A stretch of 64,000 bases of DNA from Candidatus Chisholmbacteria bacterium (GCA_963704905.1 CAVPHZ010000001.1:131438-195437), one strand, 5' to 3'. Numbered from the stretch's first letter, positions 9,619-63,052 are shown. A program made the numbers and translations. The notes: generated by a model not told the origin, from the letters alone.

Positions 9619-9685
9619 CCCCTTTCGTCGTCTTGCTTTATGTTTCTATAGCATTATGGGTTGTGATGAGTTTAAAGTCAATCAG

Positions 9686-9714: not shown

Positions 9715-9720
9715 TTCGGG

Positions 9721-10038
9721 TACCAAGGATAGGCAGATGGTAGGCTAAACTACATGTTTCCATGTGGAATAGTCAGGAAAGTCCAGACAGCTGAAAGCAG
9801 AGTGTTTTGCGAAAGCGAAAGCGGGTAACCGCCAGTTAGAGCAACAGAGACGAGTCCTCCGGCTTTTGTCGGAGGGGTGAAACGGGCAATCCTCCTCGCT
9901 GCAACCTCCGATTGTTCCGCCATTAGGTGCTTTCCCAATACAATTTCTATTGGAGCGGAGCGAAGTTGAGGGCAAAGATAGATGCCATCATTTCGAGATT
10001 TTCTCGAATACAGAATCTGGCTTACAATATCCTTGGTT
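9721..10038 (+). ncRNA. rnpB: RNase P RNA, bacterial type A
   Basis: GGAAAGTCCAGACAGC (P4), GGTAACCGCC, GCAACAGAGACGAG, GGGTGAAACGGG and 3' ACAGAATCTGGCTTA match M1 RNA conserved blocks. The 5' CCAAGGATA pairs with the 3' TATCCTTGG (P1). Confidence 0.75.
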
Positions 10039-10049
10039 TTTGTTGAGAT

Positions 10050-11054: not shown

Positions 11055-11066
11055 ATCTTAAACACC

Positions 11067-13210: not shown

Positions 13211-13264
13211 AATCTGTTCATTCTACCAGACGTTTGACAAGATTTCTTTGATATAATTGCTAGT

Positions 13265-13930: not shown

Positions 13931-13960
13931 TGCGAGTTCTTTAACTAATAAGATTGTTTA

Positions 13961-16889: not shown

Positions 16890-16892
16890 TGG

Positions 16893-17891: not shown

Positions 17892-17922
17892 AATCTCCTT
17901 ATTGTATCAAGTAAATCTTATA

Positions 17923-21093: not shown

Positions 21094-21122
21094 ATTGCTT
21101 GATTACTTTTTAAGTCTAAAAT

Positions 21123-21149
21123 AAAAAACCCCGCTTGTGCGGGGTTTTT
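21123..21149. terminator. Bidirectional rho-independent terminator
   Basis: AAAAAACCCCGCTTGTGCGGGGTTTTT: GC stem with A-tract and T-tract on either side, between the HU gene and the permease operon. Confidence 0.8.
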
Positions 21150-21171
21150 CTAAATTACTTTAGATAATTGT

Positions 21172-21447
21172 TTACCAAACTGATTTCTTCAGTGGTTTCC
21201 CCGCTCTAAAATTTACTACTCTGTGTGCTTTTATTGTCGTTCGCTGATCTTCATTACCAAATGGAACGATTTGTTTATCTGCTACTTTTGAAATGTAAAA
21301 TGTTCCAAATCCTGAAAGCACTACTCGCTCGCCTTTTTTTAATGACCTTGCAATTTCATCTAAGAATACATCCATCGCCTCTGCGGCTGCTTTTTTTGTA
21401 AGATGCCCTTTCTTGGCAACGATGTCGACAAAATCTCGCTTAGTCAT
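21172..21447 (-). CDS. hup: DNA-binding protein HU
   Basis: MTKRDFVDIVAKKGHLTKKAAAEAMDVFLDEIARSLKKGERVVLSGFGTF...RAGK. Likely start is the internal Met at 21447. Confidence 0.85.
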   Translation of the reverse strand: MTKRDFVDIVAKKGHLTKKAAAEAMDVFLDEIARSLKKGERVVLSGFGTFYISKVADKQIVPFGNEDQRTTIKAHRVVNFRAGKPLKKSVW

Positions 21448-21555
21448 TGTAACTCCTTTCGGTTCGCGTAGCGCGAACACCGCAATCACTTTTATAATTC
21501 AAACTATGTATTTAAGCTATACACCAGCAAAAATTCATTGTCAATGGGTAAATAG

Positions 21556-21593
21556 CCACAAAAAGCCCGATCCTTCAAGAAATTTGACCGGGC
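21556..21593 (-). terminator. Rho-independent terminator downstream of rny
   Basis: Hairpin AGCCCGGTC..GATCGGGCT followed by TTTTTGTGG on the minus strand. Confidence 0.55.
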
Positions 21594-21606
21594 TGTACGT
21601 TTACAA

Positions 21607-23121
21607 TTACTTTGCGACGTCTGATGCTCTTACCTCACGGACAACTGTCACTTTCACAGTTCCAGGGTAGGTCATTTCTTTTTCAATACGCACCTTAAGG
21701 TCATGAGCTATTTTTTCGGTTGCCTGATCCGAAACCTCTTTCGGTTCAACAATCACTCTCACTTCACGACCTGCTTGAATTGCATACGCTTCTTTTACAC
21801 CCTTATATGAAGTTGCGAGCTCTTCCAAAGTTGTTAAACGTTTGACATACTCTTCATAGTTCTCGTAGCGTGCTCCTGGTCGACTCCCCGAAATTGCGTC
21901 TGCAATATAGACTAGCGCAGATTCCTTAGTGCTTATCGGCTCGTCTTCATGATGCTGTGCTACACAATCCACGACTGACTGAGGAATGTTGTACTGTTTC
22001 AGAAATTTCACACCGAGTTCAACATGACTTCCTTCTTCATCTGTAATGATCTTACCGATATCGTGAAGAAGACATCCAAGACGAACGGTGTCTACATCAG
22101 CTCCAACTTCATGGGCGAGTTTTATCCCAATCTTTGTTTCTTCAAGAGTATGGGAAATCATGTTCTGGCCGTAGGAGAATCGGTATTTGAAATGGCCAAG
22201 CTTCTGCACTATGTCTCGGGGAAGATTGTAGACTTTTACCGCATGGCAGAGTTTTCTCCCTTCTTCAAACATCACTCGATCGATTTCATTTCTCGCTTTA
22301 GTGACAAATTCCTCTATTCTTGATGGTTGGATACGACCATCTGCAATGAGTCTCATGAGAGCAACTTTTGCAACTTCTCTTCGAACTGGATCAAAACTAC
22401 TTAATCGTACTTCTCCGGGTGTCTCGTCAAGATCGATGTCAACCCCTGTTGCTCGCTCAAGAGAACGAATGTTGCGACCCTCTTTCCCGATAATTCTTCC
22501 TTTCATCTCATCGTCTGGAAGTTTTACAGTTGAAACCGAATATTCTGCTACATAATCAGTTGCACCAAGACGCATGCTGTCTATGAGAATTTCTCGTGCT
22601 TTCTCCTCAGAATCCTCCTTGGCTCGCTCTTCTGCCTCTCGAATACGCTTACTCATCTGCTCAGCTAACTCTTTATCCAGTTCAGCAAAAAGGGTTTTTG
22701 AGGCTTCATCTTTGGTGAGCTTTGAAACTTGCTCGAGTTTTTCGAGTTGTTCTTTTTTCAGCAGCTCTGTTTGATTGAGGTTCTCTTCAATCTGAGCTCT
22801 TAACCTTTCGAGCTCCTCTTGTCTTTTTTGTAGGTGAGATTGCCGCTCTTCAAGGTGTGCTTCCGTTCTGGTAAGTTGCCTTTGCAATTCCGCTAATTCT
22901 TCACGGAGTCTCCGCGATTCTTCTTCTGCTCCCCGGCGGATTCGCAACGCTTCATCTTTTGCATCAATAATGATTTCTCTGGCTTTGGCTTGAGCAGCAG
23001 AAAGATCAACCTTCGCAGGAGCTGGTTCCTGTTTTTTTATGATTTTTCTCTGAGGTTGTGGTCTTGCTGTTTTACTCTCTTTTGGAAGAAAAACCTTTTG
23101 AAATGAACTAAATAACTTCAT
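21607..23121 (-). CDS. rny: Ribonuclease Y
   Basis: Coiled-coil N-terminus, KH domain (GKEGRNIRSLERATGVDIDLD) and HD domain (LLHDIGK). Confidence 0.9.
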   Translation of the reverse strand: MKLFSSFQKVFLPKESKTARPQPQRKIIKKQEPAPAKVDLSAAQAKAREIIIDAKDEALRIRRGAEEESRRLREELAELQRQLTRTEAHLEERQSHLQKRQEELERLRAQIEENLNQTELLKKEQLEKLEQVSKLTKDEASKTLFAELDKELAEQMSKRIREAEERAKEDSEEKAREILIDSMRLGATDYVAEYSVSTVKLPDDEMKGRIIGKEGRNIRSLERATGVDIDLDETPGEVRLSSFDPVRREVAKVALMRLIADGRIQPSRIEEFVTKARNEIDRVMFEEGRKLCHAVKVYNLPRDIVQKLGHFKYRFSYGQNMISHTLEETKIGIKLAHEVGADVDTVRLGCLLHDIGKIITDEEGSHVELGVKFLKQYNIPQSVVDCVAQHHEDEPISTKESALVYIADAISGSRPGARYENYEEYVKRLTTLEELATSYKGVKEAYAIQAGREVRVIVEPKEVSDQATEKIAHDLKVRIEKEMTYPGTVKVTVVREVRASDVAK

Positions 23122-23291
23122 ACTCTATCCTTTCAAGTAAATAGTTGTAAGCTACGCGGAAATAATGCCAGAGAAAAATTCGCCCACTCTTATGGTGTTC
23201 GCTGTTGTCGAAGAGGTCTGCTCACTATTTGTTGTAATTTCATCTTCGAGTACTAGTAATTGTCCAATGACATCATTTAAGCGTAAGTATT

Positions 23292-23928
23292 CTACTGTTT
23301 TCCTGTTACCTCGTCAACGACGCTTTTGATGATATTCCATGCAAAGCCTCTTCTTCTGAGATAGTCGATGAGCTTTTGTTGAGCTCGAGGATCAGAATTT
23401 TTTAAAAGTTTTTTGCTTTTTTAAAGCGGACTCCCTGGCTGACTCAATTTCATCTCTTCCTTTGAGTGCATTGCTAATGATGTGATTATCTATTCCCTTC
23501 ATTCGAAGCTCTTGAGTTATTGCGAAGTTTCCTTTGGGACGATGTTTCGTCCTCTGCTCGATCCACCACTGGGAAAACTCTTCGTCGTTGATAATATTTT
23601 TTTGCTTTAATTTATTGACCACTTTATCTATTAGCTTTTGTTTATTTTTTATTTTTGCCTGTTTATAGAGTTTTCGATGTAGATATGTTTGAATTTCTTT
23701 TTGAGATCGAGGTCTGTATGAAAGGTAATTCAATGTCTGAGATGTTAATTTTTCTTCTATTGATGTATTCAGAAGTTTTTGCAGTTGATTGCTGGAGATT
23801 TCTGTTCCTTCCTTTAGCTTCTGTTTGACCACTATAGACAAATCGAGACCTGTCACAAATTTTCCATCAATAAAAAGGTTTGCTATTTTCTTGTTCTTTT
23901 GCAATGTAATTGCAGTGATTTGTGGCAT
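23292..23928 (-). CDS. recX: Recombination regulator RecX, split by an apparent frameshift in T-rich runs near 23392-23415
   Basis: 178-aa N-terminal ORF. The canonical C-terminal repeat (KLIDYLRRRGFAWNIIKSVVDEV) is encoded immediately downstream in another frame. Directly downstream of recA. Confidence 0.75.
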
Positions 23929-23955
23929 TGAGTGGAATTTACAATTGGAAGTTTC

Positions 23956-25023
23956 TCAAGAATCCTCGGGTTGGTGGGTTTTTGCACTTGGTTTTGTTTT
24001 CTTTTCCTTTACCATTTTGTATACTTCGTTTTCTATTTCTTTTGCGAGTTTCTTGTCTTCCATGAGAATCTGTTTAGCTGCTTCTCTCCCTTGAGCCAGT
24101 ACTTCTTCTTTGTATTTGAGAAAGCTACCTGATTTTTCAATAACTCCGAGATCAGTGGCTACATCTAGTAAACTTCCCGATGATGAAATTCCTGCATCAT
24201 TCATGATATCGAACTCAGTAATTCGGAATGGGGGTGCAACTTTGTTTTTTACCACTTTTACTCGATGACGTGATCCGACAATCAGCTCCCCATCTTGAAT
24301 GTTTCCTATCTTTCGCATGTCAATTCTGATTGAGGAGTAATACTTGAGTGCATGTCCTCCTGTAGTGGTTTCAGGATTTCCAAACATTACACCGATTTTC
24401 ATTCGAAGTTGGTTGGTAAAAATCATCACCGTCTTTGAACGAGCGATCGCACCTGATAATTTCCTCATAGCTTGACTCATTAATCTTGCCTGAACTCCAA
24501 TTATTGAGTCTCCCATATCCCCTTCGATTTCTGCTTTTGGCACGAGTGCAGCGACTGAATCAATGCAAATGACGTCGACTCCACCGGAGCGGATAAGTGT
24601 TTCGGCTATTTCTAATGCTTGTTCTCCTGTGTCTGGCTGAGAAACGAGAAGCTCGTCAAGATTTACACCAATTGCAGCTCCTCGTTGCGGATCGAGCGCA
24701 TGTTCGGCGTCGATAAACGCTGCTGTTCCACCCATCTTCTGTGCCTGTGCAATGACGTGAAGACAGAGGGTTGTTTTTCCACTCGCCTCTGGACCAAATA
24801 TTTCTGCTATTCTCCCGCGCGGTAAACCCCCAACTCCCAGTGCGATATCTAATCCAAGCGCGCCAGTTGGTATCGATGAAATACCTTCTAACTTTGAAGG
24901 AGCATCCCCGAGCTTCATTATTGATCCTTTTCCGTATTGCTTTTCGATCTGCTCCATTGCAATGTTGACTGCTTGAAGCCGTTTCGACTGTTTGTCTTCT
25001 TTGGAAGTTTTTTCTTTCTTCAT
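23956..25023 (-). CDS. recA: Recombinase RecA
   Basis: [20 protein letters not shown] (Walker A), [11 protein letters not shown]2 loop region. 355 aa. Confidence 0.95.
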
Positions 25024-38923: not shown

Positions 38924-39943
38924 TTACTTCAATTTATAATAGCTTGACTTGGTTGTCCCTTGCCGATCGATAAAGCCTTTGCTTACCAACGCGCTTAACA
39001 AATTGTGGGCCTGTTGGCGGGATACACCAAGCTTGCGGGCAAGATCGGTAGAGGTCAATTCCGGCTGTTCTTGCATGAGCTGCAATACCTGGTCTTCTTT
39101 CTTGGTCGGCCGGTCCTTGACTGAGAGCGTCTGAGCTGCATTTTTTACCCGCGCCAACGCACCAATCAACGAATGTTTTACTCCATCGGAAAAATATTCC
39201 AGCCACTGTGTCTTGTCCCCGCTGTCAGCCGTGTGAAGCTTGTCGGAGTAGAGAGTTTTGTCGATGTCATAGTAATCATCCAGAACGAAGTACTTGTTAA
39301 TTAAATAGTCCGCCTTGATGAACACCAACGCAGTGAGTATCCGGCAGACCCGTCCGTTGCCGTCTTCGAAGGGATGGATGTAAACAAATTCGTGATGAAA
39401 GATACCAGTTTTAATAATAATGGGCAGTTTCTCGGTGCTTTCGGTCCATTCAAACAATGGACGTAAGCCTGCTTCTATTTGCTTCCGCTGATGAAAGGGA
39501 GGATCGTGTTTCACTCTGAGAGTCGCTGTCTCCTTTTCTCCGATAAATTTTCCCACCACCACTTTTCTGTTGCGGATTTCTCCGGCAGTTTTATCAACAC
39601 CCTGCAAGATGAGCTTGTGAATTTCTTTGGTGAGGTCGACGCTGAGTTTTTTTTGTTTATATTCTGTAAGCGCAGACAGGATCTGAAAGTAGTTGACGAC
39701 TTCTTTTTCATCGCGGTTCGTCGGAACCCGGTCGTCCAGCAGCAGATTGGTTACTTCCGGGAGTGTCAGCGGGTTGCCTTCAATGGCGTTACTGGCATAG
39801 GAGGATTTGATGAGATTATCCCGGTTGAGGTTGAGCTCAAGTTTTTTAGGAATGCGAAATGATTCAATCTGGCCGTAGAGCCGTTCGATTTCGGTGATGT
39901 TATTAAGCAGTGTATTGGTGAGCGTGTATTTTGGCGCTAGCAT
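38924..39943 (-). CDS. Fic family protein (AMPylation domain) with C-terminal winged HTH
   Basis: Canonical Fic motif HPFEDGNGRVCR. C-terminal LTSTDLARKLGVSRQQAHNLLSALVSKGFI wHTH. Confidence 0.85.
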   Translation of the reverse strand: MLAPKYTLTNTLLNNITEIERLYGQIESFRIPKKLELNLNRDNLIKSSYASNAIEGNPLTLPEVTNLLLDDRVPTNRDEKEVVNYFQILSALTEYKQKKLSVDLTKEIHKLILQGVDKTAGEIRNRKVVVGKFIGEKETATLRVKHDPPFHQRKQIEAGLRPLFEWTESTEKLPIIIKTGIFHHEFVYIHPFEDGNGRVCRILTALVFIKADYLINKYFVLDDYYDIDKTLYSDKLHTADSGDKTQWLEYFSDGVKHSLIGALARVKNAAQTLSVKDRPTKKEDQVLQLMQEQPELTSTDLARKLGVSRQQAHNLLSALVSKGFIDRQGTTKSSYYKLK

Positions 39944-40049
39944 GTTATTATTGTCAATATATATGTAAAGATTATTGACAAGAATCTGGCTTATTAATTG
40001 TCAATGTTATTGTAAAGCTTTATGTCAAGTTTGTCAAGTGGTTCTTGAG

Positions 40050-42637: not shown

Positions 42638-43108
42638 ATGTTCGATAACAACCTTCTGCGAAAATTGAGAATTGGATTTCTGTTTTCAGGTGTTCTCGTT
42701 TCCTGGACCACTACCCTGGCTGCGTTTATGAACTTCTATCGCCTTGAGGGAACGCTGTTTAAAATCAAGGACTGTATCATCCCCAATCCGGTAACTACCC
42801 CGTGTTTCTGGGGAGCGTTGGCGTTTATGGGCGCCTTGATCTGGTCGCTGTATCTGTTGAAGAACAATAATGAAAAATCAGATCGGTATCTGTTTTATTT
42901 TCTCATCGGTTGTGTGATTTTTGCCTGGGGCAATTTTACGGTTGAGCTTATGGGAATAACTCCAAAACCAGGTGCATTGATCGCACCTTGTCCTGCAACC
43001 GGTACCAATCCGTTTCTTTCCGCCTGCTTCTTCGGTTCTGTTTTGTTTACTTTATCCTTGACAACGAATTTCTTTATACAAAGAAAGGGTTCGGGCAGTT
43101 CTGCTTAA
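42638..43108 (+). CDS. Small polytopic membrane protein (possible transporter component)
   Basis: 156 aa, 4 TM. Preceded by TGGTAGAAT 8 nt from the ATG (leaderless-type start). Confidence 0.45.
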   Translation: MFDNNLLRKLRIGFLFSGVLVSWTTTLAAFMNFYRLEGTLFKIKDCIIPNPVTTPCFWGALAFMGALIWSLYLLKNNNEKSDRYLFYFLIGCVIFAWGNFTVELMGITPKPGALIAPCPATGTNPFLSACFFGSVLFTLSLTTNFFIQRKGSGSSA

Positions 43109-44991: not shown

Positions 44992-45594
44992 ATGATCAGA
45001 CCAGAATTGATATCAGGGATTGAAGCGAAAGATTTAGGATTACCGATAGCTGAAATGCAGACGGCATTTCCGCTTGATGTTTATCCAGAGTTTGAGCTGA
45101 AAGGTTTCGCTGAAACGGGCCATCATCATTTTCCCAGCGTGCTCTTTGGAATTCGTCGAGGAAACGAGATAAGGCGCTATCCCCGACCTGAGATATCCAT
45201 CGGTTACGAAATTCTACCGAAATCGGCACAATTAAATTTGGAGATTTATTTTGATAATTTTGGAAACCCGATCGCCGCACCTCGGGCTTTTACGCTTATT
45301 ATTGAAAACTCGAGAAGGCGTATCCTTCACAAACTTCGAAACGCCCCAAAAGGCACGAGAATGGGATATCATAGTCCTGAAATTTCTGCTCTTTCGATTG
45401 CATTACCTGATACGAGATATACATTTGAACCTCGACCAGAAGAACCCGGACTACAAACATTTGCCTTAACTAGAGCAACTCTAGATAGTCCACCACAGTC
45501 TAATCTCTTACTTACTTTTAAAGAAGTTGATAGCGATGGTTTTGAACTGCTTCCGAATTCTTGGACAGTCTTGGAAGACAATTTATTTACTTAA
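44992..45594 (+). CDS. Hypothetical protein (last gene of GC-rich island)
   Basis: 200-aa ORF, GC-rich, no motif. Confidence 0.35.
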   Translation: MIRPELISGIEAKDLGLPIAEMQTAFPLDVYPEFELKGFAETGHHHFPSVLFGIRRGNEIRRYPRPEISIGYEILPKSAQLNLEIYFDNFGNPIAAPRAFTLIIENSRRRILHKLRNAPKGTRMGYHSPEISALSIALPDTRYTFEPRPEEPGLQTFALTRATLDSPPQSNLLLTFKEVDSDGFELLPNSWTVLEDNLFT

Positions 45595-45802
45595 TAAACT
45601 GAATAAGTCGTCTATCTAAGATCTGTCATCTATAATCTGTGATCTGATTTTTCCTACTTACTGAATTCGTATATTATTAGGGTATTTCGCTTTTCCCACC
45701 TGCCCGCCGGAGTTTCCGGCTGCGAAAACGGCTAGATCGCAGTCTTGAGTAAGCAGCGAAACGCATGGCGAGGGGCCAGAAAGAAAGTGGTAGAATTTTG
45801 TT

Positions 45803-46321
45803 ATGAAGAAAAAGTCTCGCAAGAGGAAAGCAATCTATGCCTTCATCGATAGTCAAAACCTCAGCCTAGGAGTGAAAAGCCTTGGGTGGAATCTCGATTT
45901 TGCAAAATTCAGAGTGTATCTCCGCGATAAATACAAGGTTGAGAAAGCGTACTTGTTTATCGGTCATGTTCCTGGAAATGAAAAACTTTATACCCACTTA
46001 CAAGAATCCGGGTATGTGGTTGTGTTTAAACCAACGCTTGAATATCGAAAAGGGAAGAAGGTTTTTACCAAGGGCAACGTGGATGCCGAATTGGTTCTCC
46101 ATACGATGATCAACCTCAAAACATTCCATAAAGCCATCATTGTCTCGGGGGATGGAGACTTCCATTGCCTTGTCGAGTATCTTCACAGCCAGAAGAAATT
46201 GGAAAAAATTATCGTGCCGAACAGCAAGTATTCTTCGCTGCTTCGAAAATTTGCTCAATATATCGTGCCGGTGGAGCTGTTTAAAAGCAAAGTAAAAGAA
46301 ACGAGAACATCCAGACAATAA
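45803..46321 (+). CDS. NYN-domain (LabA-like) protein
   Basis: AFIDSQNL...GNVDAELV...SGDGDF acidic residues in NYN nuclease spacing. Confidence 0.6.
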   Translation: MKKKSRKRKAIYAFIDSQNLSLGVKSLGWNLDFAKFRVYLRDKYKVEKAYLFIGHVPGNEKLYTHLQESGYVVVFKPTLEYRKGKKVFTKGNVDAELVLHTMINLKTFHKAIIVSGDGDFHCLVEYLHSQKKLEKIIVPNSKYSSLLRKFAQYIVPVELFKSKVKETRTSRQ

Positions 46322-46549
46322 AAAGAGAGGCATTCCCTCGGGACGGAACCCTTTGGTAGTCCTCTCATCGTGATGTCATTATTATAGCAGGTTGCAACAA
46401 CTTTTTCTTCTATGTTCAGTATTCTTTATTCAATATTCTATTAATCCTCTGTTGCCTGTCATACACCAGAAAACGAATACATTAATCACCTTTGGGATAC
46501 TTACCTGACATTAGACACTCTTGGGGATGCTGGCAGAGGTTTTTCGATA

Positions 46550-47059
46550 ATGCCATTTCATATTTTGTTCATGCTCGCATTGCAGTATAAAGTCTTAAGA
46601 ATAAACAAAATTTACGGAAAAGAATGTAAACTAATATTTTGTACTTCTGGATCGAGATACAAAAAAGAACTATTAAATCCAGCTCTATCCGTTTTTGACC
46701 TTGCGTTACTTAGCGAAAAGCATCTTCCAGAGTTTTTTCAGCTGATTGGTTTAGATGAAGACACAATAAGAACTATTAAGAAATTCATCAACTATCGAAA
46801 TGACAATCTCGCACATCCAAAGGGCGGAATTGAACAAAATCCTGAAGCAAGGATCACATCCTACATCGAAGTTCTTAAAAATATTCAGATCTTTATGCTT
46901 AGTCTAAACAACAAGGTTGCTAAAAAATGGATTGGTGAGATGGATCCTGGAGAAGCGGGAGTTGAATATATCGATCTGCATTTGGCAGAGGAATTTCTTT
47001 GTCCAGCTGACATGCAACAGGGTGAATTAGCGGAATTAGATAATAGATTAAACCACTAA
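46550..47059 (+). CDS. Hypothetical protein
   Basis: 169-aa ORF in AT-rich accessory island. No motif recognised. Confidence 0.35.
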   Translation: MPFHILFMLALQYKVLRINKIYGKECKLIFCTSGSRYKKELLNPALSVFDLALLSEKHLPEFFQLIGLDEDTIRTIKKFINYRNDNLAHPKGGIEQNPEARITSYIEVLKNIQIFMLSLNNKVAKKWIGEMDPGEAGVEYIDLHLAEEFLCPADMQQGELAELDNRLNH

Positions 47060-47180
47060 ACTTAATAATCAGATTATTTAACGACATTTACAAAACGAGG
47101 AGTCCTCCTCATCAATGTTGATAATCTCTCGAGAACGTAAAAACGTCCCAGGTACCCTGGGACTAAATTTTCCAGATCTC

Positions 47181-47200
47181 GTTTTTTCTGAAATTTCTCC
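47181..47200 (+). repeat. Island motif copy 1 (GTTTTTTCTGAAATTTCTCC)
   Basis: Core TTCTGAAAWTTCT, 25 nt upstream of TGCTATAAT and 66 nt upstream of the ATG at 47266. Confidence 0.7.
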
Positions 47201-47265
47201 CGTTTCCCCAAGTTTTGCTATAATACCCGAACTATATACGAATATTAATCGGTTCAGCCGTATTT

Positions 47266-47874
47266 ATGAAAATAAAAGGTTACTATCCGGACAAATTTTC
47301 CGAACATTTCTCTGTATTCGTGAGAAATGCTGAAAAAATTTCAGGTGCAATTTGGAAATCAGAAGAGATAAATGGTTCAAAAAAGAAAGTGGTCTCTTTT
47401 ACAGGACATCTTTCAGAGGAGGCTTTAAAAAATATTCCAGAAGATATCCGGTCTATTTTTTTAATATTTGTTTCTTTTGAAGTAATGTTTGACGAGGTAG
47501 CATATACTTACTTCCCGCTTGATTATCAATACTTTCAATCATTGACGTTGTTTCCTAAGTACTACTTTTGTGGACATGGACCTGTGGGCGAAGGAAGTCC
47601 TTTTGGTATTTACTTCTTGTTACCCAAACAATTCAGAATATTTTCTAAAAGAAGAACTTATCTAAAACAAGGACCACCGCAAGTTCAGAAAGCATACAAG
47701 ACTTATAAAGAATGTAGCAGAGAGTTTATCACATACATGAATGATTTCCTCAGCAAGCATACATTTACTGAAATGACCATGAGAAGAGTTAAAACAGTTA
47801 TTTTAAATGACAAAGATATATATAGAAATGTCTATGGAAGAGTCTTTCAATCAATTTTAAAGAATACGTTTTGA
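47266..47874 (+). CDS. Hypothetical protein
   Basis: 202-aa ORF preceded by repeat motif copy 1 and TGCTATAAT. Confidence 0.4.
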   Translation: MKIKGYYPDKFSEHFSVFVRNAEKISGAIWKSEEINGSKKKVVSFTGHLSEEALKNIPEDIRSIFLIFVSFEVMFDEVAYTYFPLDYQYFQSLTLFPKYYFCGHGPVGEGSPFGIYFLLPKQFRIFSKRRTYLKQGPPQVQKAYKTYKECSREFITYMNDFLSKHTFTEMTMRRVKTVILNDKDIYRNVYGRVFQSILKNTF

Positions 47875-47931
47875 TCAGGATCTCACAAGTTTGGAAGTTA
47901 ATACTTATTTACAACACTACCTTCCAAAAAT

Positions 47932-48615
47932 ATGCAAGAATATCCAATTGAAGTCATCGATAATCACATAACAATAAATATTAACGATAAAAAAGTGCTG
48001 CTTGATACAGGCTCTCCAAATAGCATCGGTAAATTTCAAAATATAAAACTTTTAGGCAAAGAATATACACTTTCAGATAATTTCATGGGAATCGATATTT
48101 TTCAGATATCAAATTTTATAGACAGAGATATTGATGCAATGTTGGGTGGGGATATTCTAAGAGAGTACTATTTTGTGATTGACTGGCAAAAACGGTTATT
48201 CAAGCTTTCCACGGAACAAATTTCTTTTGAAGGAATAGAAGTTCTGATTAAAGTAGCAATGAACATTCCGGTTGTAAATATCAAGATTAATAAAAAGTCT
48301 GTTAAAACATTTTTAGACACAGGTGCAAAAATATCCTACGTGGACCCATCAATTACTAATAAATATGATTCTATTGGAGAAGTTACTGATTATTATCCAG
48401 CCTTTGGCCAGTTCGAAACATCTATTTTTAAAATTCCCGTTTTTTTAGCAGAAAAAAATATTGATTTGGTATTTGGAACACTCCCTGATTCACTACAAAA
48501 TTCATTAATGATGGCAGGAACCCAAGGAATATTAGGAAATGATGTTTTTAACTATTTCAGTATATATTTTGAATTGTCGAGGGAACGTATATTTATGAAG
48601 GAAGTAGTTGATTAA
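47932..48615 (+). CDS. Two-lobed aspartyl protease-like protein (two DTG motifs)
   Basis: LLDTGSPNSIG and FLDTGAKISYV about 110 aa apart, like a pepsin/retropepsin fold. Confidence 0.45.
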   Translation: MQEYPIEVIDNHITININDKKVLLDTGSPNSIGKFQNIKLLGKEYTLSDNFMGIDIFQISNFIDRDIDAMLGGDILREYYFVIDWQKRLFKLSTEQISFEGIEVLIKVAMNIPVVNIKINKKSVKTFLDTGAKISYVDPSITNKYDSIGEVTDYYPAFGQFETSIFKIPVFLAEKNIDLVFGTLPDSLQNSLMMAGTQGILGNDVFNYFSIYFELSRERIFMKEVVD

Positions 48616-48660
48616 TTTAACCAGTTAGGCTTTTTAAATGCTGATTTTTATCTACATCTC

Positions 48661-48682
48661 GTTTTTTTCTGAAATTTCTCGG
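48661..48682 (+). repeat. Island motif copy 2 (GTTTTTTTCTGAAATTTCTCGG)
   Basis: Shares the extended ATCTCGTTTTTTCTGAAATTTCTC with copy 1. Upstream of the NERD gene. Confidence 0.7.
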
Positions 48683-48738
48683 ATGTCCTTCTTTTCTTTG
48701 TAATTACGTTCTTTCTTAATACCGTCTATGATATTAGT

Positions 48739-49467
48739 ATGAGCCGGTTTTTTGGAGGGGATAGTCAGTACTTAGTTCGGCAAAAGCAAAGACACAAACG
48801 AATATTGCTTCTTATCTTGATTGTTTCTCTTGCTATTTCAATTGCTATACCAATATTAAGTTTTCGTTATCGAAAGTTGCAGTATTTAAGTTATCCTCTT
48901 GCTGCATTTTCATTTGTTGGTTATCTTTGGATGAAAAAGACCGGCGACAAAAAGCTTCATTCAGCGCGCAGTTATGCAAAAGGAGCAAAAGGGGAAAAGA
49001 ACATTGGTTTGCTTTTACGCCGTTTGCCTGATGATTACCTTGTATTTCAAGATATCAAGCTTGAAAAAGATTCGGGAAATATCGATTTTGTAGTGGTCGG
49101 ACGCAAAGGCGTTTATGCAATAGAGGTCAAAAGCCATGCAGGAAATATCACGTATGAGAATGGACAGCTACTGCGGAATGGAAAATCATTGGAAACAGAT
49201 TTTCTCAAACAGACGATGAGTGAAGCCATGAATCTTCATGGTTTCTTATTAACAAAGTTGGGTAAAGACCTCTTTGTTTATCCAGTTCTTGTCTTCTCGC
49301 ATTGGAAAGCGCAAGTAAGATTTGGCGAAAAACCAATTGAGAAGGTTTACATTGTTCAATACCGCTGGCTGATAAATTTGATCACTGATCTAGAATCACA
49401 ATCTCACCACGCTCTTAATCAAGATGAGCTCAGCCAGATGCTAGAACCTCACCTCCATGAAGCTTGA
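48739..49467 (+). CDS. NERD-domain nuclease-related protein with N-terminal TM
   Basis: KGAKGEKNIGLLLRRLPDDYLVFQDIKLEKDSGNIDFVVVGRKGVYAIEVKSHAG matches the NERD core. Confidence 0.6.
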   Translation: MSRFFGGDSQYLVRQKQRHKRILLLILIVSLAISIAIPILSFRYRKLQYLSYPLAAFSFVGYLWMKKTGDKKLHSARSYAKGAKGEKNIGLLLRRLPDDYLVFQDIKLEKDSGNIDFVVVGRKGVYAIEVKSHAGNITYENGQLLRNGKSLETDFLKQTMSEAMNLHGFLLTKLGKDLFVYPVLVFSHWKAQVRFGEKPIEKVYIVQYRWLINLITDLESQSHHALNQDELSQMLEPHLHEA

Positions 49468-49502
49468 CACACCAGGAGTGGAATTCTCTTGACACATCGA
49501 AG

Positions 49503-49520
49503 CGTTTTCTGAAAATTCTC
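49503..49520 (+). repeat. Island motif copy 3 (CGTTTTCTGAAAATTCTC)
   Basis: Preceded by TTGACA. Upstream of brnT. Confidence 0.7.
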
Positions 49521-49622
49521 TTTTTTCTTATCCTCTTCATATCTAAATGTACAAAGTGTTATATAATTTATACCCATATCTTGATATGGCTATAATCATG
49601 GTAAACTATACAGAATAACTTT

Positions 49623-49907
49623 ATGATGAAAGTTCGTTTCGAATGGGATGAAGAGAAAAATAGAATTAATAAACGAAAGCATAAAGTTTCGTTTCAGGAA
49701 GCTCAATACGCTTTTTTGGATCCGGACAGAATTATTGCTGAGGATAGACAACATAGTGATGACGAGAAACGATATTACTGTTTTGGTGAGGTGAAAGGAG
49801 GTGTGTTGACCGTTCGTTTCACCTATCGAAAAAATAAAATTAGAATTATCGGCGCCGGTTATTGGCGCCAGGGTAAAAAGATTTATGAAAAAGAACATAA
49901 ACTATAG
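49623..49907 (+). CDS. brnT: BrnT-family (DUF497) ribonuclease toxin
   Basis: FEWDEEKNRINKRKHKVSFQEA...RIISARKA-like ending IRIIGAGYWRQGKKIY. Confidence 0.7.
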   Translation: MMKVRFEWDEEKNRINKRKHKVSFQEAQYAFLDPDRIIAEDRQHSDDEKRYYCFGEVKGGVLTVRFTYRKNKIRIIGAGYWRQGKKIYEKEHKL

Positions 49908-50109
49908 TGATGAGCCAATCAATGCGAAGGTGATTAAAGACTTTCTCCCTAAACCTGAAGACTTGGTCTTTAAAGAGGAAAAGGTGAAGGTCACGTTGTC
50001 ATTGTCGAAACGGAGTGTTGACTTTTTTAAGAAGGTTTCTCAGAGGCAAGGTACCGCCTATCAAGCTATGATTCGCAGGCTTCTCGATTACTACGTGGCT
50101 CAGCAGTAG
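49885..50109 (+). CDS. brnA: BrnA-family antitoxin
   Basis: Overlaps the brnT 3' end. 74 aa. C-terminal RHH-like segment. Canonical BrnT-BrnA order. Confidence 0.55.
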   Translation: MKKNINYSDEPINAKVIKDFLPKPEDLVFKEEKVKVTLSLSKRSVDFFKKVSQRQGTAYQAMIRRLLDYYVAQQ

Positions 50110-50142
50110 CTTTGACAGAAGAGATTTGAGTATTTACATCTT

Positions 50143-50160
50143 GTTTTTCTGAAAATTCTG
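50143..50160 (+). repeat. Island motif copy 4 (GTTTTTCTGAAAATTCTG)
   Basis: Upstream of the P-loop kinase gene. Confidence 0.7.
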
Positions 50161-50252
50161 TCTTTTCTTTATTTCGCTTCTAATCTTAATTTAAGCTAGT
50201 ATATTTTTTTTATCTCCTATGTTTAATAGCTTATCGAGTATAATCGTGGTTA

Positions 50253-50771
50253 ATGCAGTATCTTGCGATTATTCGGGGAGCTCCAGCGAGTGGCAAGTCG
50301 ACGATTGCCAAGAAATTACGGGATTTTAAAAAACGCGTGGTTTGGCTTAAAGTCGATAACTTTAAAGATTTCTTTGTGGCTGAAGCAACGCTTACGGAAC
50401 AACGGTTTGTCGATGAGTGTGCTCTTGCTAGTTTGAACTACCTTTTGGATGAGGGTTTTTCTGTTGTCATGGAAAAAATCTTTTACGATACTTCTATCAT
50501 TCCGCTTGCAGTTGAAGCCGCAAAAAAACGAGGTATTCCTGTTCAAGTTTTTCAGCTTACTTGTCCTTTAAAGGCCCTTCAATCAAGAGACAGAAACAGG
50601 CCGGGAATAAAAGAAGGTTGTCGAAAGTTGATGGGAGATGAGGTAATTGCGAAGATTTATGCTCAGCTTGAAAAAACATTTTATCCCGGTGCTTTTTCTT
50701 TGGATACGGAGAAATATTTGATTGAAGAGTGCATAGCAATCATCCATAAAAAATTAAGGATGAAAAATTAA
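50253..50771 (+). CDS. P-loop NTPase/kinase (AAA_33 / zeta-toxin-like fold)
   Basis: Walker A GAPASGKST near the N-terminus. 172 aa. Confidence 0.55.
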   Translation: MQYLAIIRGAPASGKSTIAKKLRDFKKRVVWLKVDNFKDFFVAEATLTEQRFVDECALASLNYLLDEGFSVVMEKIFYDTSIIPLAVEAAKKRGIPVQVFQLTCPLKALQSRDRNRPGIKEGCRKLMGDEVIAKIYAQLEKTFYPGAFSLDTEKYLIEECIAIIHKKLRMKN

Positions 50772-50830
50772 CCTCTTTTACCTGTTGAGATCGTTCTAGT
50801 TATCTCCTATGGTTTCTTTAATTCTCGTCA

Positions 50831-50845
50831 CTTCTGAAATTTCTG
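50831..50845 (+). repeat. Island motif copy 5 (CTTCTGAAATTTCTG)
   Basis: Upstream of the 50899 gene. Followed by TCTTT as in copy 4. Confidence 0.65.
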
Positions 50846-50898
50846 TCTTTAGGATGTTTTATATCTTTTTATCTGGTTCTGTCTGGTAAAATTCACTT

Positions 50899-51486
50899 GT
50901 GAAAAAGAAGACCCGCATCGCTTGGCAAAGCAGAGAACCAAAGTTTCCCAAACAAGGACTGGTGGTTGCTGTCTGGCTGCAGGGACCTGATATGGATCAG
51001 GCATTCCCGCTGCCTCTTTCGCTGCTAATTTCTGATCTTGGTCTTGTTCATGATTATGTGCTTACCTTTAAAAAGGAGGTTCGGATGCGGGATGCAAAGA
51101 TTTCTTTCTTGGATGATGTGCTTTTACAAACCGTTGAGTTTGACCGGCTGGTCCCGCTGAGACGCGTGTATTGGCAATCGCCAACCGTCCATGTTGATGG
51201 GATGCAGCGCATGAGCGTTTTTACAAAAATGTTCCGCCATTTTTCTTTTTATCAGCTCCTGGTTACACCCAATGAGTTTGTGGGTGAGCTTGAGACCTTT
51301 TCGGTTGGCTTTCCGTTTTTGACGACTTCTGTTGACACGATTTTGGATCCATTTTTACGCAGTTCAGATCTCTCGGTTGATCCAACCGCTAAACACGCCG
51401 CGCTCTACGTACCGCAAGAACCTGTTGGCTACAATTGGATAAAACATGAATATGTAAAGAAAAGCCGTGTATCAAATAAGAAATAA
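50899..51486 (+). CDS. Hypothetical protein
   Basis: 195-aa ORF preceded by repeat copy 5. No motif. Confidence 0.35.
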   Translation: MKKKTRIAWQSREPKFPKQGLVVAVWLQGPDMDQAFPLPLSLLISDLGLVHDYVLTFKKEVRMRDAKISFLDDVLLQTVEFDRLVPLRRVYWQSPTVHVDGMQRMSVFTKMFRHFSFYQLLVTPNEFVGELETFSVGFPFLTTSVDTILDPFLRSSDLSVDPTAKHAALYVPQEPVGYNWIKHEYVKKSRVSNKK

Positions 51487-51516
51487 TCTGAAAGCTAATG
51501 TTTTCTGGATTTGGTT

Positions 51517-51534
51517 TCTTCTGAAATTTCTCGC
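51517..51534 (+). repeat. Island motif copy 6 (TCTTCTGAAATTTCTCGC)
   Basis: 30 nt upstream of the TGATATACT extended -10 of the GxxExxY gene. Confidence 0.7.
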
Positions 51535-51566
51535 TTTTGTTTTTTCTTAACTGATATACTGTTTAT

Positions 51567-52032
51567 ATGGAAAAAGACATTGAGAAACTGGTTACTGTAT
51601 TAAAAGACTCCGCGAAGAAGGTGTATGCGGAGCTGGGGCCAGGGTGGAAAGAGGAAATCTATCAAAAGGCGATGGAGGTGGCGCTGCGGCATGAGAGTAT
51701 TTTGTACGAAACACAGCGAATTCTCCCCATTACGTTTTCCGATCATGTCATTGGAGAAGCAATTCCTGACTTGGTTCTTTGGATAACTCGTAGAGGAGAA
51801 GAAAATTGCCTTTGTCGTTGACTTGAAGGCGGAACCGGGTCTCAAGGAAGAGCATGGCGTCCAAGTTCAACGGTATATTCAAGAACTGCGGAAACAAGTC
51901 CATCAGAAAAAGCATGAAGTGTATGCAAAAGGATTAGTGATTAACTTCGTGAAGGAAAAAACCAGCAAAAAGCTCCCTGAGGAAGAGTTTGAAGACCTCA
52001 ATGGCGTGCAGGTTTTGGAAGTCGAGGCATAG
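51567..52032 (+). CDS. GxxExxY-family protein (PD-(D/E)XK-like), split by an apparent frameshift at about 51800-51825
   Basis: GPGWKEEIYQKAM (GxxExxY). The downstream frame carries KIAFVVDLKAEPGLKEEH...GLVINF, the family C-terminal motif. Confidence 0.65.
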
Positions 52033-52062
52033 CCTTCTTCTGACAGTCTCAGTGATATTCGT

Positions 52063-52692
52063 CTATAGTTCTAGAATGTCCTTTTCTCCGCTGGGCTCGT
52101 TAATTTGCAGCCTTAGGTTGGCGTCTGATTCGTTGATAGCAAATCCAACTCGTGTGAATTTATCACTATTTGACTCCAACTCCACCGGGTCATTGTGTAT
52201 GTCGGGGGCCACCCAGTTTTCTTGGTTGTTGACCGACAATCGTATGTAATCTTTGGTGTTAACGTTTGTAATCGCATCATTGTTGGAATTGAGTTTGAGA
52301 TTGACTATTAAAAACTCTCTGCCTGATACTGCAGTTGCTCTTTTTCCCTGAACGATTACTTCATTTATTCTTTGATAATCTACGAGTGTGATTTTTATTT
52401 CTCCTGCTGTTTCGCCATTGTCGTCTGTGATGGGGAAGACGTACTCTTTGTTTATGTCTGTCGGTTGCGGCTTTTGCGTTGGTGCGGCAGTTGTTATAGG
52501 AGTGATTGTTGGAACGAGCGATACCTCTTCCTCTGCGGTTTGATTTTCCTGTGACATTGATTTAAATGCTTGAAGTTGACCAAACAAATAAAATGCTAGT
52601 CCCGAAGTAGCGATGAGTAGCAGGAGCAGAATAAAGACGAGTATCCAGGCGAAATTGCTTGCTTGCCTTTCACCTTGTTTTACTTCTTCCAT
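52063..52692 (-). CDS. DUF4352-like secreted/membrane-anchored protein
   Basis: N-terminal TM and Thr/Pro linker. The C-terminal domain is paralogous to the 55539-56186 gene. Confidence 0.5.
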   Translation of the reverse strand: MEEVKQGERQASNFAWILVFILLLLLIATSGLAFYLFGQLQAFKSMSQENQTAEEEVSLVPTITPITTAAPTQKPQPTDINKEYVFPITDDNGETAGEIKITLVDYQRINEVIVQGKRATAVSGREFLIVNLKLNSNNDAITNVNTKDYIRLSVNNQENWVAPDIHNDPVELESNSDKFTRVGFAINESDANLRLQINEPSGEKDILEL

Positions 52693-52762
52693 CTATTGTT
52701 TCTCAAATATATTTGGGCGAATTCTAACATAAATGATCTATTAATTTAGAATGGGCATTTAC

Positions 52763-52780
52763 TCTTTTCTGAAAATTCTA
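52763..52780 (+). repeat. Island motif copy 7 (CTTTTCTGAAAATTCTAT)
   Basis: Upstream of the zinc-ribbon gene. Confidence 0.65.
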
Positions 52781-52821
52781 TTTTTTCTTTCCGATTTTGA
52801 TTTTTACTTAATATTGCTGTC

Positions 52822-53204
52822 TTGGTTTATTCCGGGACTGAAAAGGGCTACCATGGAGGTATGGAGAATTCTCTTTCCTGCTTTCAATGCCACACTGAAG
52901 TTCACGAGGGTGATTATTTTTGTTCAAACTGCGGAAAAACCTTAAACCCGCACCTCCGTCTACCTCTGTGGAAAGGCAGATCTGATTGTACTTGGGAAGC
53001 TTTCTTCTCCCCCCTTTCGGGATCTTCTGGGGTCTGCGATACCTTCGACAGCCGGATACACAATCGAGGAAAGTTGGGATCATTGCCATTGGGCTGACGA
53101 GTGTTGCACTGCTGTTGGCTGTTAAGCTGACGGTGGATTTGATTGCCATGGTGAATGGAGTCAATTCGCAGTACATGCAGGAACTTCAACAGCTTGGTTA
53201 CTAA
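52822..53204 (+). CDS. Zinc-ribbon domain protein with C-terminal TM, apparently split across two frames near 52986-53017
   Basis: CFQCHTEVHEGDYFCSNCGK zinc ribbon in the first frame. The hydrophobic VGIIAIGLTSVALLLAVKL segment is in a frame that opens at 52986. A C6-7 run lies at the junction. Confidence 0.4.
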
Positions 53205-62311: not shown

Positions 62312-63052
62312 ATGTTTGGATATTATATTTATCGATTATTACCACTCACGATAAAAAACGCAACTAATCGAGTCGGTATACAATTGCTACGCCCGAGAAT
62401 GCGAAGTCACTTTGCGCAATTTGTCTTTCCTGGAGACCTCGTCTTTGATATTGGTGCTTATGTTGGAAACTATACTGAGATTTTCTTAGATCTTGGCGCT
62501 CGAGTTGTTAGTATTGATCCACAACCCTATTGTGTGAAGACGCTTCAATCGAAGTTTTTACACAACCCTAATGTCACTATCGTCAACAAAGGTGTGAGCG
62601 ATACATCAGCAACCATACCTTTTTCAATTTCAAAAAAATCTCGTACCAATTCAACATTTTTTACCCCTTGGAAGCATCATAAGCGGTATAAAGATCGCAC
62701 ATGGGAAAATCAAATAGATGTCCTAACCACAACCCTCCATTCACTGATTGAGCAGTATGGGATACCTGATTTTTGCAAAATTGATGTTGAAGGATACGAA
62801 CCGCAAGTGCTGAAAACTCTTCAAGTAAAAATTCCGCGGCTGTCATTTGAATTTGATCAAGAATTCATGGACAATGCTCGTCTTTGTATCAAGTATTTGA
62901 CATCACTTGGAAAAGTCAAATTCAATTATGCACTTTATGGCGGATCGGCATTAGATTCTGAACGCTGGCTATCAGATCAACAACTACTGAATGTCCTCCG
63001 TTCAAAAATAAATGGACACCTGCGCGGGGATATTTACGCTAGGTTCGTTTGA
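62312..63052 (+). CDS. FkbM-family methyltransferase
   Basis: VFDIGAYVGNYT and CKIDVEGYE motifs. Confidence 0.65.
   Translation: MFGYYIYRLLPLTIKNATNRVGIQLLRPRMRSHFAQFVFPGDLVFDIGAYVGNYTEIFLDLGARVVSIDPQPYCVKTLQSKFLHNPNVTIVNKGVSDTSATIPFSISKKSRTNSTFFTPWKHHKRYKDRTWENQIDVLTTTLHSLIEQYGIPDFCKIDVEGYEPQVLKTLQVKIPRLSFEFDQEFMDNARLCIKYLTSLGKVKFNYALYGGSALDSERWLSDQQLLNVLRSKINGHLRGDIYARFV

Follow-up and report, generated by a model that had tools for sequence, protein, structure and literature searches.

The window, by which we mean the whole stretch of 64,000 nucleotides (64 kb) analysed here, includes an accessory island made up of seven compact modules which carry unrelated toxin/defence-type genes head-to-tail, with a GC content of 31 to 46%. 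Each module has a copy of a short conserved element at its 5′ edge, co-oriented with the gene downstream. Three accessory genes located upstream (44992-47059) are without a copy, and unit 6 is separated from copy 7 by a minus-strand gene (52063-52692). Nothing DNA-binding was identified among the hypothetical proteins of the island when their sequences were searched against Pfam, NCBIfam, PADLOC and PDB. To judge from its sequence, the host is a Patescibacteria (CPR) bacterium and not a member of the Firmicutes: proteins homologous to the flanking cation-efflux protein are assigned by name to Patescibacteria group bacteria, and the gene content (RNase Y, type IV pilus genes) fits CPR. The features are as follows.

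47145-47163, plus strand: intrinsic-terminator-like hairpin which ends the preceding gene (46550-47059), the only such hairpin between units
47176-47209, plus strand: element copy 1 (core 47186-47198), preceded by the terminator hairpin and upstream of the hyp202 and Asp-protease-like pair
47266-48615, plus strand: module 1, ORFan 202-aa gene (47266-47874) and Asp-protease-like gene (47932-48615), GC 31-32%
48657-48690, plus strand: element copy 2 (core 48667-48679), upstream of the NERD gene; an equivalent copy is kept in L213/L214 (see below)
48727-49495, plus strand: module 2, -10 box TATGAT (48727) 6 nt before the ATG, NERD gene (48739-49467)
49487-49495, plus strand: conserved 3′ tail of module 2, TCTTGACAC
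49497-49530, plus strand: element copy 3 (core 49507-49519), upstream of BrnT/BrnA
49574-50109, plus strand: module 3, with its own palindrome CCATATCTTGATATGG (49574-49589), BrnT (49623-49907) and BrnA (49885-50109)
50137-50170, plus strand: element copy 4 (core 50147-50159), upstream of the P-loop kinase gene (Zeta_toxin/AAA_33)
50239-50771, plus strand: module 4, -10 box TATAAT (50239), P-loop kinase gene (50253-50771)
50822-50855, plus strand: element copy 5 (core 50832-50844), upstream of the gene for a 195-aa hypothetical protein
50887-51486, plus strand: module 5, -10 box TGGTAAAAT (TAAAAT at 50887), hypothetical gene (50899-51486), GC 46%
51509-51542, plus strand: element copy 6 (core 51519-51531), upstream of a frameshifted GxxExxY (PDDEXK_3) gene
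51555-52032, plus strand: module 6, -10 box TATACT (51555), GxxExxY/PDDEXK_3 gene with a frameshift near 51800
52757-52790, plus strand: element copy 7 (core 52767-52779), in a divergent intergenic region upstream of a frameshifted zinc-ribbon gene
52861-53204, plus strand: module 7, zinc-ribbon gene (CxxC...CxxC) whose C-terminal membrane segment is in another frame (frameshift)

The sequence-only reading had described a motif present in seven copies on a single strand, and this motif is real: the 13-mer TTCTGAAAWTTCT is invariant in 7/7 window copies (47186-52779), all on the plus strand, against 0.02 expected. The longer pattern TTCTGAAAWTTCTS has exact plus-strand matches at 47186, 48667, 49507, 50147, 50832 and 51519 (expected 0.02 times in shuffles, with 0/100 shuffles reaching six), and the seventh copy, at 52767, departs from it only at the last, degenerate position. 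A 38-nt weight matrix scored over the whole 64 kb window gives 34-43 bits for the seven copies and 12 bits for the next best site, a gap which bears out the earlier observation that the motif is absent from the remaining 58 kb.

The conserved element covers about 25-30 nt and includes a T-run, the invariant 13-mer and then some 10 conserved pyrimidine-rich bases, with the consensus T(n)-TTCTGAAAWTTCT-S-N-Y-TTTT-S. Positions +1 to +10 downstream of the core are significantly conserved (0/5000 shuffles match the observed score), while ungapped upstream flanks are not because the length of the T-run varies. Even in the longer block that had been noticed as common to copies 1 and 2, and which is indeed shared, the T-run differs by one T. 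The element is A/T-rich with phased T-tracts, and its core is invariant while the flanks are mosaic across copies; copy-to-copy alignments extend over 25-34 nt at 68-96% identity, the longest pair reaching 38 nt at 82%. Its symmetry is that of alternating TTC/GAA half-sites, TTTC-T-GAAA and GAAAWTTC. The near-palindrome GAAnnTTC pointed out previously is thus only one of two overlapping palindromes, the other being TT(T)C-T-GAA(A), and a TTTTC-like half-site is present three times with a 9-nt offset. No significant secondary structure was found in the seven intergenic regions folded as DNA on both strands (z -2.7 to +0.6).

All copies are intergenic. The previous plus-strand stop codon is 32-126 nt away (734 nt for copy 7) and the next plus-strand start codon 35-103 nt downstream. 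That each copy precedes one or more small plus-strand genes is correct in 7/7 cases, with the qualification that a frameshift interrupts both the GxxExxY gene and the zinc-ribbon gene. The fixed relation to a -10 box that had also been proposed is not borne out: within the window the element precedes the -10 box and start codon by anything from 19 to ~85 nt, and in the related locus L213 by as much as ~130 nt, without helical phase.

L213 belongs to another organism and encodes P0123, the closest homologue of the NERD protein (60% aa identity, 66% nt identity, third codon positions 46% identical). The exact 13-mer is found upstream of this gene on the same strand, together with the T-run and a matching +1 to +10 flank, and was seen in two samples, L213 and L214. 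With the L213 copy added to the seven of the window, the core is identical in 8/8 copies. The remainder of the L213 intergenic DNA cannot be aligned and includes an 84-nt insertion, and the gene neighbourhood differs from that of the window, the upstream gene being on the other strand. Only a single element is present, on the 5′ side of the NERD gene, with no second copy 3′ of it. Homology of the NERD unit extends from ~15-20 nt before the core to ~30 nt past the stop codon, its right limit in the window lying 9 nt before the T-run of the next element; the left flank of the element therefore accompanies the NERD gene despite the different upstream neighbour. Conservation of the exact 13-mer in single copy, upstream of such a diverged homologue and in another neighbourhood, argues that selection maintains the site as a part of the module. 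The L213 copy is identical to the window copies at 17-24 of 30 positions and the orthologous copy is not the closest (20/30), a pattern which fits pressure to keep a single consensus better than mere inheritance of each copy. No copy accompanies two NERD homologues at greater distance, L216 (43%) and L217 (36%).

Every module is equipped with a -10 box of its own, located 6-8 nt ahead of the start codon as in other genes of the host, and transcripts are therefore probably leaderless. The host promoter consensus, TGGTAnAAT just before the start codon, is found in the modules as well. Since every module thus includes a complete promoter of its own, the element is an addition to the promoter. It could nevertheless be a propagated promoter part (an UP-element, a -35-like upstream part or a weak promoter with GAAAWT as its -10 box) copied before newly acquired genes so as to activate them, in the manner of "mobile promoters". 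Every copy has a gene downstream on its own strand; the composition of the element, A/T-rich with phased T-tracts, would suit this role, as would island promoters in which -10 boxes are good and -35 boxes poor; and copy 3 has TTGACA 16 nt before GAAAAT. Homologous upstream segments before non-homologous genes have been described by Matus-Garcia, Nijveen and van Passel in 2012 (PMC3488235), within one genome and also between genomes, and in this respect the element resembles them. However, these putative mobile promoters were defined by at least 50 nt at at least 80% identity upstream of non-homologous CDSs (PMC3488235), and the similarity here is too short, 38 nt at 82% in the longest pair; moreover, the core promoter is not included and lies at a variable distance. 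The other copies are also without a consistent -35 box 16-18 nt upstream of GAAAWT, the host consensus is already provided by the modules and, in L213, a strong hairpin separates the element from the NERD promoter. We consequently reject the element as a core promoter, given the variable spacing to the -10 box and the missing -35 box, and consider a propagated promoter part improbable.

No intrinsic terminators were found between modules 1-6, and read-through transcripts containing the element are therefore likely. Within these it might be where the RNA is processed or cut by an RNase, where a protein binds or where transcription ends in an unconventional way, and both its strictly conserved orientation and the U-rich tract which follows the core are in keeping with such a role. 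Nevertheless, it has no conserved secondary structure, no Rfam family was matched in the window, in L213 or in the cation-efflux relative L154, and the dyad together with the 9-nt periodic symmetry is typical of duplex DNA recognition. In addition, no upstream read-through would contain the element in L213, where the upstream gene is on the other strand. Action at the RNA level thus appears very improbable.

The arrangement of the island raises the question of whether the element is a module junction, i.e. a recombination site at which small promoter-plus-gene modules were captured serially by a recombinase encoded elsewhere, or by short-homology recombination between copies. The logic would be integron-like, but the site is simple, does not form a hairpin and is placed 5′ in the module. 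Such a history might be expected to leave what is seen here: direct copies in a single orientation, seven in all and one for each module, along a head-to-tail series of unrelated accessory genes of diverse GC content, with an invariant core in mosaic flanks and a variable distance to the gene. The NERD unit occurs as a discrete block in two distinct contexts and, in the closest relative, a variable toxin-antitoxin/Abi/Fic island adjoins the same cation-efflux gene. On the other hand, no gene for an integrase, transposase or serine recombinase was found in the 64 kb window; the only strong stem is the terminator, the element itself remaining unfolded; neither a GTTRRRY core nor an 11-6-11 dyad is present; and the L213 module has its single copy on the 5′ side only. 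Since the left flank travels with the downstream gene, any crossover would lie outside the conserved core. On balance a recombination site, the chief alternative to an operator, is possible but unlikely. Its more specific form, a hitherto undescribed CPR gene-capture system analogous to integrons without hairpin attC sites, in which ~30-nt unstructured 5′ sites would allow a recombinase encoded elsewhere to stack small self-expressing modules (each with promoter, gene and short tail) head-to-tail at a hot spot, is more doubtful than either this general form or a promoter part; such a hot spot may be chromosomal, beside the cation-efflux gene.

Integron arrays and CALINs also consist of small co-oriented unrelated genes, including toxin-antitoxin genes, with one conserved site per unit. 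Here, in contrast, the element is ~30 nt long, unstructured and 5′ rather than 3′ of the gene, has no R″/L″-L′/R′ repeats, and no IntI is present. Taking an attC hairpin length of 57-141 nt as the criterion, no imperfect-inverted-repeat hairpin (R″-L″...L′-R′) was found and the aligned element includes no GTTRRRY. None of the ~70 window ORFs has a tyrosine or serine recombinase or a transposase domain, whereas an integron array adjoins intI together with attI and Pc, although CALINs lack these. The modules have their own -10 boxes and the L213 element is 5′ of its gene, whereas integron cassettes are mostly promoterless with a 3′ site. We thus reject an attC site: its expected structure, core sequence and placement with respect to the gene all speak against it, as does the absence of an integrase from the window. 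Nor is the element part of Xer/pdif modules, for which 28-nt sites in alternating orientation are expected: 7/7 copies are in direct orientation and there is no 11-6-11 dyad. A MITE or REP-type repeat, for which one expects terminal inverted repeats or a stable hairpin and copies scattered over the genome, was also rejected, as there is no hairpin and no copy outside the island in 58 kb.

No array with the element was found in viral, genome or metagenome scans, which also counts against a recombination site. In the genome collection, a 23-nt pattern gave 33 matches in unrelated taxa, every one of them isolated at its locus; some matches, for example L128, fall inside coding regions. Among viral contigs, a 16-nt pattern gave single random matches among the matches listed, a 21-nt pattern 34 single matches (approximately the chance expectation) and the 23-nt pattern none, and in one contig of 65% GC the 13-mer lies inside a different repeat. 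Metagenomes were searched with a two-core pattern (cores 527-587 nt apart): all 50 matching loci are long repeats, duplicated genes or tandem arrays (period 82/93 nt), none with T-run and pyrimidine flanks or with differing flanks. The motif is likewise absent from relatives found through the flanking cation-efflux gene (L154-L157 and L209-L212). In all, ~100 kb from relatives is without it, including L154, which has another toxin-antitoxin island adjoining the same gene for a CDF transporter. No paper that we found describes the motif in CPR.

The element is therefore most likely a control site rather than an integron-type recombination site, and we favour, with a probability of about 50%, a putative operator shared by the modules, that is, a cis-acting site for a DNA-binding protein. 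Of the two explanations offered in the sequence-only reading, the operator is the better supported, by the dyad and direct-repeat symmetry and by exact conservation at the 60%-identical NERD homologue. The cassette boundary survives loosely, in that the NERD module occurs in two contexts and the left homology limit is at the element, while an integron-like mechanism finds no support in hairpin, GTTRRRY core or a recombinase in the window. What the sequences show is that the element exists, is invariant, keeps its strand and position, is conserved in another organism and has no attC features; that a protein binds it, what kind of factor this would be and whether it activates or represses are inferred. 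The operator would belong to the 5′ regulatory region of each module, and a single trans-acting DNA-binding protein encoded outside the window would read all copies. Because the spacing is variable and without helical phase, and no terminators separate the modules, the bound protein is more likely to act position-independently than through contact with RNA polymerase at a set place in the promoter. It might block read-through from the upstream module, as a roadblock or insulator, or it might nucleate repression; in both cases toxin and defence-type genes would come under coordinated control. CodY, studied by Belitsky and Sonenshein, can reportedly repress as a roadblock independently of promoter position.

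Several observations count against an operator. A core of 13/13 identical positions in 8/8 copies is tighter than in typical chromosomal regulons; the window copies form one array in one orientation, and module junctions would look alike; the ~100 kb from relatives are without a copy; and classical activation or promoter occlusion is hard to reconcile with the variable promoter distance. The ~70 window ORFs scanned yielded no candidate regulator: there is no CodY and no other plausible transcription factor, the exceptions among DNA-binding proteins being a Fic-wHTH protein (which has different repeats of its own) and HU. The operators of KorA and KorB in IncP-1 plasmids and the ArdK and StbA sites of R388 are short and repeated before many transcription units of accessory or backbone regions, in part at a variable promoter distance. 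The element resembles them as a nearly invariant short site before many separate units, suggestive of coordinated control. Those operators are, however, symmetric palindromes with no orientation bias, whose regulators are encoded by the mobile element itself, whereas the present site is asymmetric, points the same way as the genes and has no regulator gene in its vicinity.

To our knowledge, almost nothing is known of transcriptional control and accessory-gene organisation in CPR/Patescibacteria. These bacteria cannot be grown alone, and the present host is uncultivated and ultra-small. The site is unusually clean, with an invariant 13-nt core, seven copies in one array and an eighth in another organism, and could provide a bait for the binding protein, a search key for a toxin/defence regulon and a marker of module movement. 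Should it prove recombinogenic, it would represent a new kind of cassette system.

Among known regulators, CodY offers a close comparison of layout, although the host is not one of the Firmicutes, from which CodY is known; we know of none from Patescibacteria, and our literature search found nothing on CodY in this group. No CodY (GAF domain plus wHTH) is encoded among the scanned window ORFs, the genes downstream of the element are of toxin-antitoxin/defence type whereas the CodY regulon is metabolic, and natural CodY sites vary far more than this core does. The CodY box is a 15-nt sequence, AATTTTCWGAAAATT, usually present as two or three boxes overlapping by 6 nt, and functional sites tolerate up to ~5 mismatches (PMC10415144). 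The copies differ from AATTTTCWGAAAATT by two mismatches (copies 3, 4, 7 and L213), three (copies 1 and 2), four (copy 6) or five (copy 5). TTTTC-like half-sites lie at offsets 0, 9 and 18 in most copies, a 9-nt spacing that may correspond to that of overlapping CodY boxes, but only one GAAAA half-site is conserved, that of boxes 2 and 3 being missing. The 13-mer, TTCTGAAAATTCT, lies within the sequence-optimised double CodY operator used for crystallography. Such a layout would provide the geometry for dimers binding cooperatively to overlapping sites, as in CodY-type double operators, and if the binding protein is CodY-like, this type of regulator would be extended beyond Firmicutes.

A scan of the window for TTCTGAAAWTTCTS returned six exact matches, where a mean of 0.02 is expected by chance and none of 100 dinucleotide-preserving shuffles reached six. 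A seventh copy departs from TTCTGAAAWTTCTS only at the last, degenerate position, and the 13-mer TTCTGAAAWTTCT is invariant in all seven. One unit could be assigned to each copy, which lies 32–126 nt 3′ to the previous plus-strand stop codon and 35–103 nt 5′ to the next start codon.

Element copies in the window and the unit 3′ to each
Copy 1, 47186, plus strand: ORFan gene and Asp-protease-like gene
Copy 2, 48667, plus strand: NERD protein
Copy 3, 49507, plus strand: BrnT/BrnA
Copy 4, 50147, plus strand: Zeta_toxin/AAA_33-type kinase
Copy 5, 50832, plus strand: 195-aa hypothetical protein
Copy 6, 51519, plus strand: GxxExxY (PDDEXK_3) gene, 51567-52032, split by a frameshift
Copy 7, 52767, plus strand: zinc-ribbon/membrane gene, 52861-53204, split by a frameshift

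With a 38-nt weight matrix built from these same seven copies, they score 34–43 bits, against 12 bits for the best other site in the 64 kb. The distribution is all-or-none and restricted to 47.2–52.8 kb, which bears out the sequence-only reading in its description of seven same-strand copies, one per unit, absent from the other 58 kb. A repeat finder recovered element families of 25–38 nt. In a column-wise shuffle test, conservation of the ten bases 3′ to the core was significant (0 of 5000 shuffles). The 5′ side is a T-run of varying length, and so shows no conservation when aligned without gaps. The element is therefore about 25–30 nt long, T(n)-TTCTGAAAWTTCT-S-N-Y-TTTT-S. The GAAnnTTC near palindrome remarked on earlier is present as GAAAWTTC, but is overlapped by a second palindrome, TT(T)C-T-GAA(A). 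A stretch with four TTCnnTA heptads at 46411-46442, 5′ to a 169-aa gene, matches the copy 7 region at 18 of 23 positions (repeat family D18); it could be either an eighth copy that has decayed or a heptad operator unrelated to the element.

The units differ in GC content, from 31 to 46%. With two genes frameshifted there, the distal end of the island appears to be in decay, the alternative being sequencing errors. Most genes inside and outside the island carry a -10 box, TGGTAnAAT or TATAAT-like, 6–10 nt before the start codon (the extended form TGGTAnAAT, for example, 5′ to 12044-13210, 42638-43108, 45803-46321, 50899-51486 and 62312-63052). This promoter style, seen in many window genes, includes no Shine-Dalgarno sequence, and the two features together suggest that the mRNAs of the host are predominantly leaderless. 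Units of the island have their own -10 boxes of the same style, so the element comes on top of a promoter that is already complete. The -10-like sequences noted downstream of the copies are present, but their spacing is variable (19 to ~85 nt) and without helical phasing. This variability, together with the modules' own promoters, makes it quite unlikely that the element is a propagated part of a promoter; nor does it reach the minimum of 50 nt at 80% identity by which mobile promoters were defined in print (PMC3488235). Between two -10-like boxes 5′ to brnT lies a perfect palindrome, CCATATC-TT-GATATGG (49574-49589). It is distinct from the shared element and probably serves as an operator of the toxin-antitoxin pair itself.

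When the seven intergenic regions were folded on both strands, z-scores fell between -2.7 and +0.6, the only strong stem being a terminator hairpin; the island includes a single terminator-like hairpin, just 5′ to copy 1. With neither a structure nor an Rfam match, a signal acting at the RNA level is very improbable. The reading as an integron-type site is rejected on the absence of a fold, of a GTTRRRY core in the conserved element columns and of recombinase or transposase domains in the ~70 ORFs across the window. We also consider it distinctly improbable that the array represents a hairpin-less cassette-capture system in CPR.

The window NERD protein has one close homologue, P0123, whose gene is carried by contigs from two samples, L213 and L214, with one base difference in 1.9 kb; on a third contig, L215, the upstream sequence is too short to reach the element site. 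In L213 and L214 the exact 13-mer is found 5′ to the gene and on the same strand, preceded by a T-run and followed by AGCTTTTCCC, where base composition predicts about 3 x 10^-5 chance matches in that 458-nt upstream region. Identity is 60% for the proteins, 66% for the genes and just 46% at third codon positions, and the intergenic DNA of the window and L213 is unalignable except for the element and the -10/start region (TATGATATTrGwATG). Between its element and the NERD promoter, L213 has gained 84 nt as an insertion that bears a strong hairpin (970-1005, CCCCGATGGGAT...ATCCCACGGGG). Its copy is identical to the seven window copies at 17–24 of 30 positions and the orthologous copy (20/30) is not the closest, a pattern which fits constraint towards a single consensus. 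Homology between the two loci begins about 15–20 nt 5′ to the core and ends about 30 nt past the stop codon, at TCTTGACAC, which in the window lies 9 nt short of the next element; the L213 gene has other neighbours, on the opposite strand, and no second copy was found 3′ to it. From this conservation, module-bounded homology, change of neighbours and lack of a 3′ copy, we infer that the element is the 5′ part of a self-contained module, and the same comparison indicates that selection maintains it in two organisms. In L213 the element lies between the arms of an inverted repeat, ACTATCCC / GGGATAG.

As the main alternative, modules would be captured at the element as a junction or recombination site, which would account for the array, the common orientation, core invariance and modularity; it is unlikely, since there is neither a recombinase in the window nor a recombinase-type site architecture and L213 lacks the second copy. 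Of the two options in the sequence-only reading, operator or cassette boundary, we favour the former, at a probability of about 0.5: the element would be a shared putative operator for one DNA-binding protein, giving coordinated control of the modules. Because promoter spacing is variable and no terminators separate the units, this protein would more likely act position-independently, as a roadblock or insulator or by nucleation of repression, than by fixed contact with RNA polymerase. A repeated operator 5′ to several units is a known arrangement; unusual here are the core invariance, the single element per module, the strict orientation, the cross-organism conservation and the CPR host. To our knowledge no cis-regulatory element of this type is known from CPR, and none was described in the literature searched.

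A full-text literature search located the 13-mer inside a sequence-optimised double operator used for crystallography of CodY, a Firmicutes regulator. The single-box mismatches number 2–5 across eight copies (seven in the window and that of L213). The CodY box is AATTTTCWGAAAATT, natural operators consist of boxes overlapping by 6 nt, that is, with a 9-nt offset, and a site can depart from the box at five positions and still function (PMC10415144). The likeness is an architectural resemblance, not a demonstration. The element repeats TTTTC-like half-sites at offsets 0, 9 and 18 in most copies, with the GAAAA half missing from the second and third. Its host belongs to the Patescibacteria; the window encodes no CodY, and the literature search turned up nothing linking CodY to Patescibacteria.

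Conservation elsewhere, as had been suggested for study, extends to the NERD homologue of L213 and L214, but no copy occurs in a further ~100 kb, made up of relatives' contigs linked through the flanking cation-efflux gene and of L216 and L217, loci of more distant NERD homologues. A 23-nt version matched 33 times in unrelated genomes, always as a single hit, and not at all in viral contigs; with a 21-nt version there were 34 single hits among viral contigs, about as many as chance would give. A two-core pattern matched 50 metagenome loci, all of them longer repeats or tandem arrays merely containing the 13-mer. In JGI samples Ga02099xx (L165, L170, L172, L174, L177, L201, L203 and others), long tandem arrays of about 30% GC with alternating 82/93-nt periods hold the same 13-mer in each unit, and appear unrelated to the window element. 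Two repeat copies (GCGCAGAGAAAAACCA-TTCTGAAAATTCT) holding an identical 13-mer in L158, a 65% GC viral contig (5241-5253 and 5769-5781), may serve the phage as a regulatory site.

The source contig is 772,908 bp, the window genes include RNase Y, type IV pilus genes, RecA/RecX and HU, and the names of proteins homologous to the flanking cation-efflux protein assign them to Patescibacteria group bacteria, placing the host in the Patescibacteria (CPR). The closest relative, L154, lacks the element despite a toxin-antitoxin/Abi/Fic island beside its cation-efflux gene. Its modules are separated by a GC-rich repeat of the island's own, GCTCCCCC...GGGGACACTATCCGAA, the middle of which varies (7473-7526, 13630-13710, 14430-14487, 15733-15771, 16863-16896 and 18214-18232), directly after stop codons and before TTGACA/TATATA promoters, with no Rfam match. 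Another relative, L209, has eight copies of a conserved promoter, TTGTAGTTTTGGGC...GGTATAATT on the gene strand (1508-1541, 1800-1833, 2675-2708, 3808-3841, 4281-4314, 4973-5006, 6774-6807 and 7397-7430), seven of them directly 5′ to small, apparently leaderless genes. A block comprising MS channel, AI-2E transporter, IPPT, ABC transporter, HU, RNase Y, RecX and RecA is shared between the window (8908-25023) and a further relative, L211 (10944-20930). It directly follows the cation-efflux gene in L211 and lies about 28 kb from it in the window, which points to a rearrangement in which accessory genes have built up next to the efflux gene. Three direct TTGACAATAAT-like repeats (39944-40013) 5′ to a minus-strand Fic gene (38924-39943), whose product has a C-terminal winged-helix domain, are probably its autoregulatory site.
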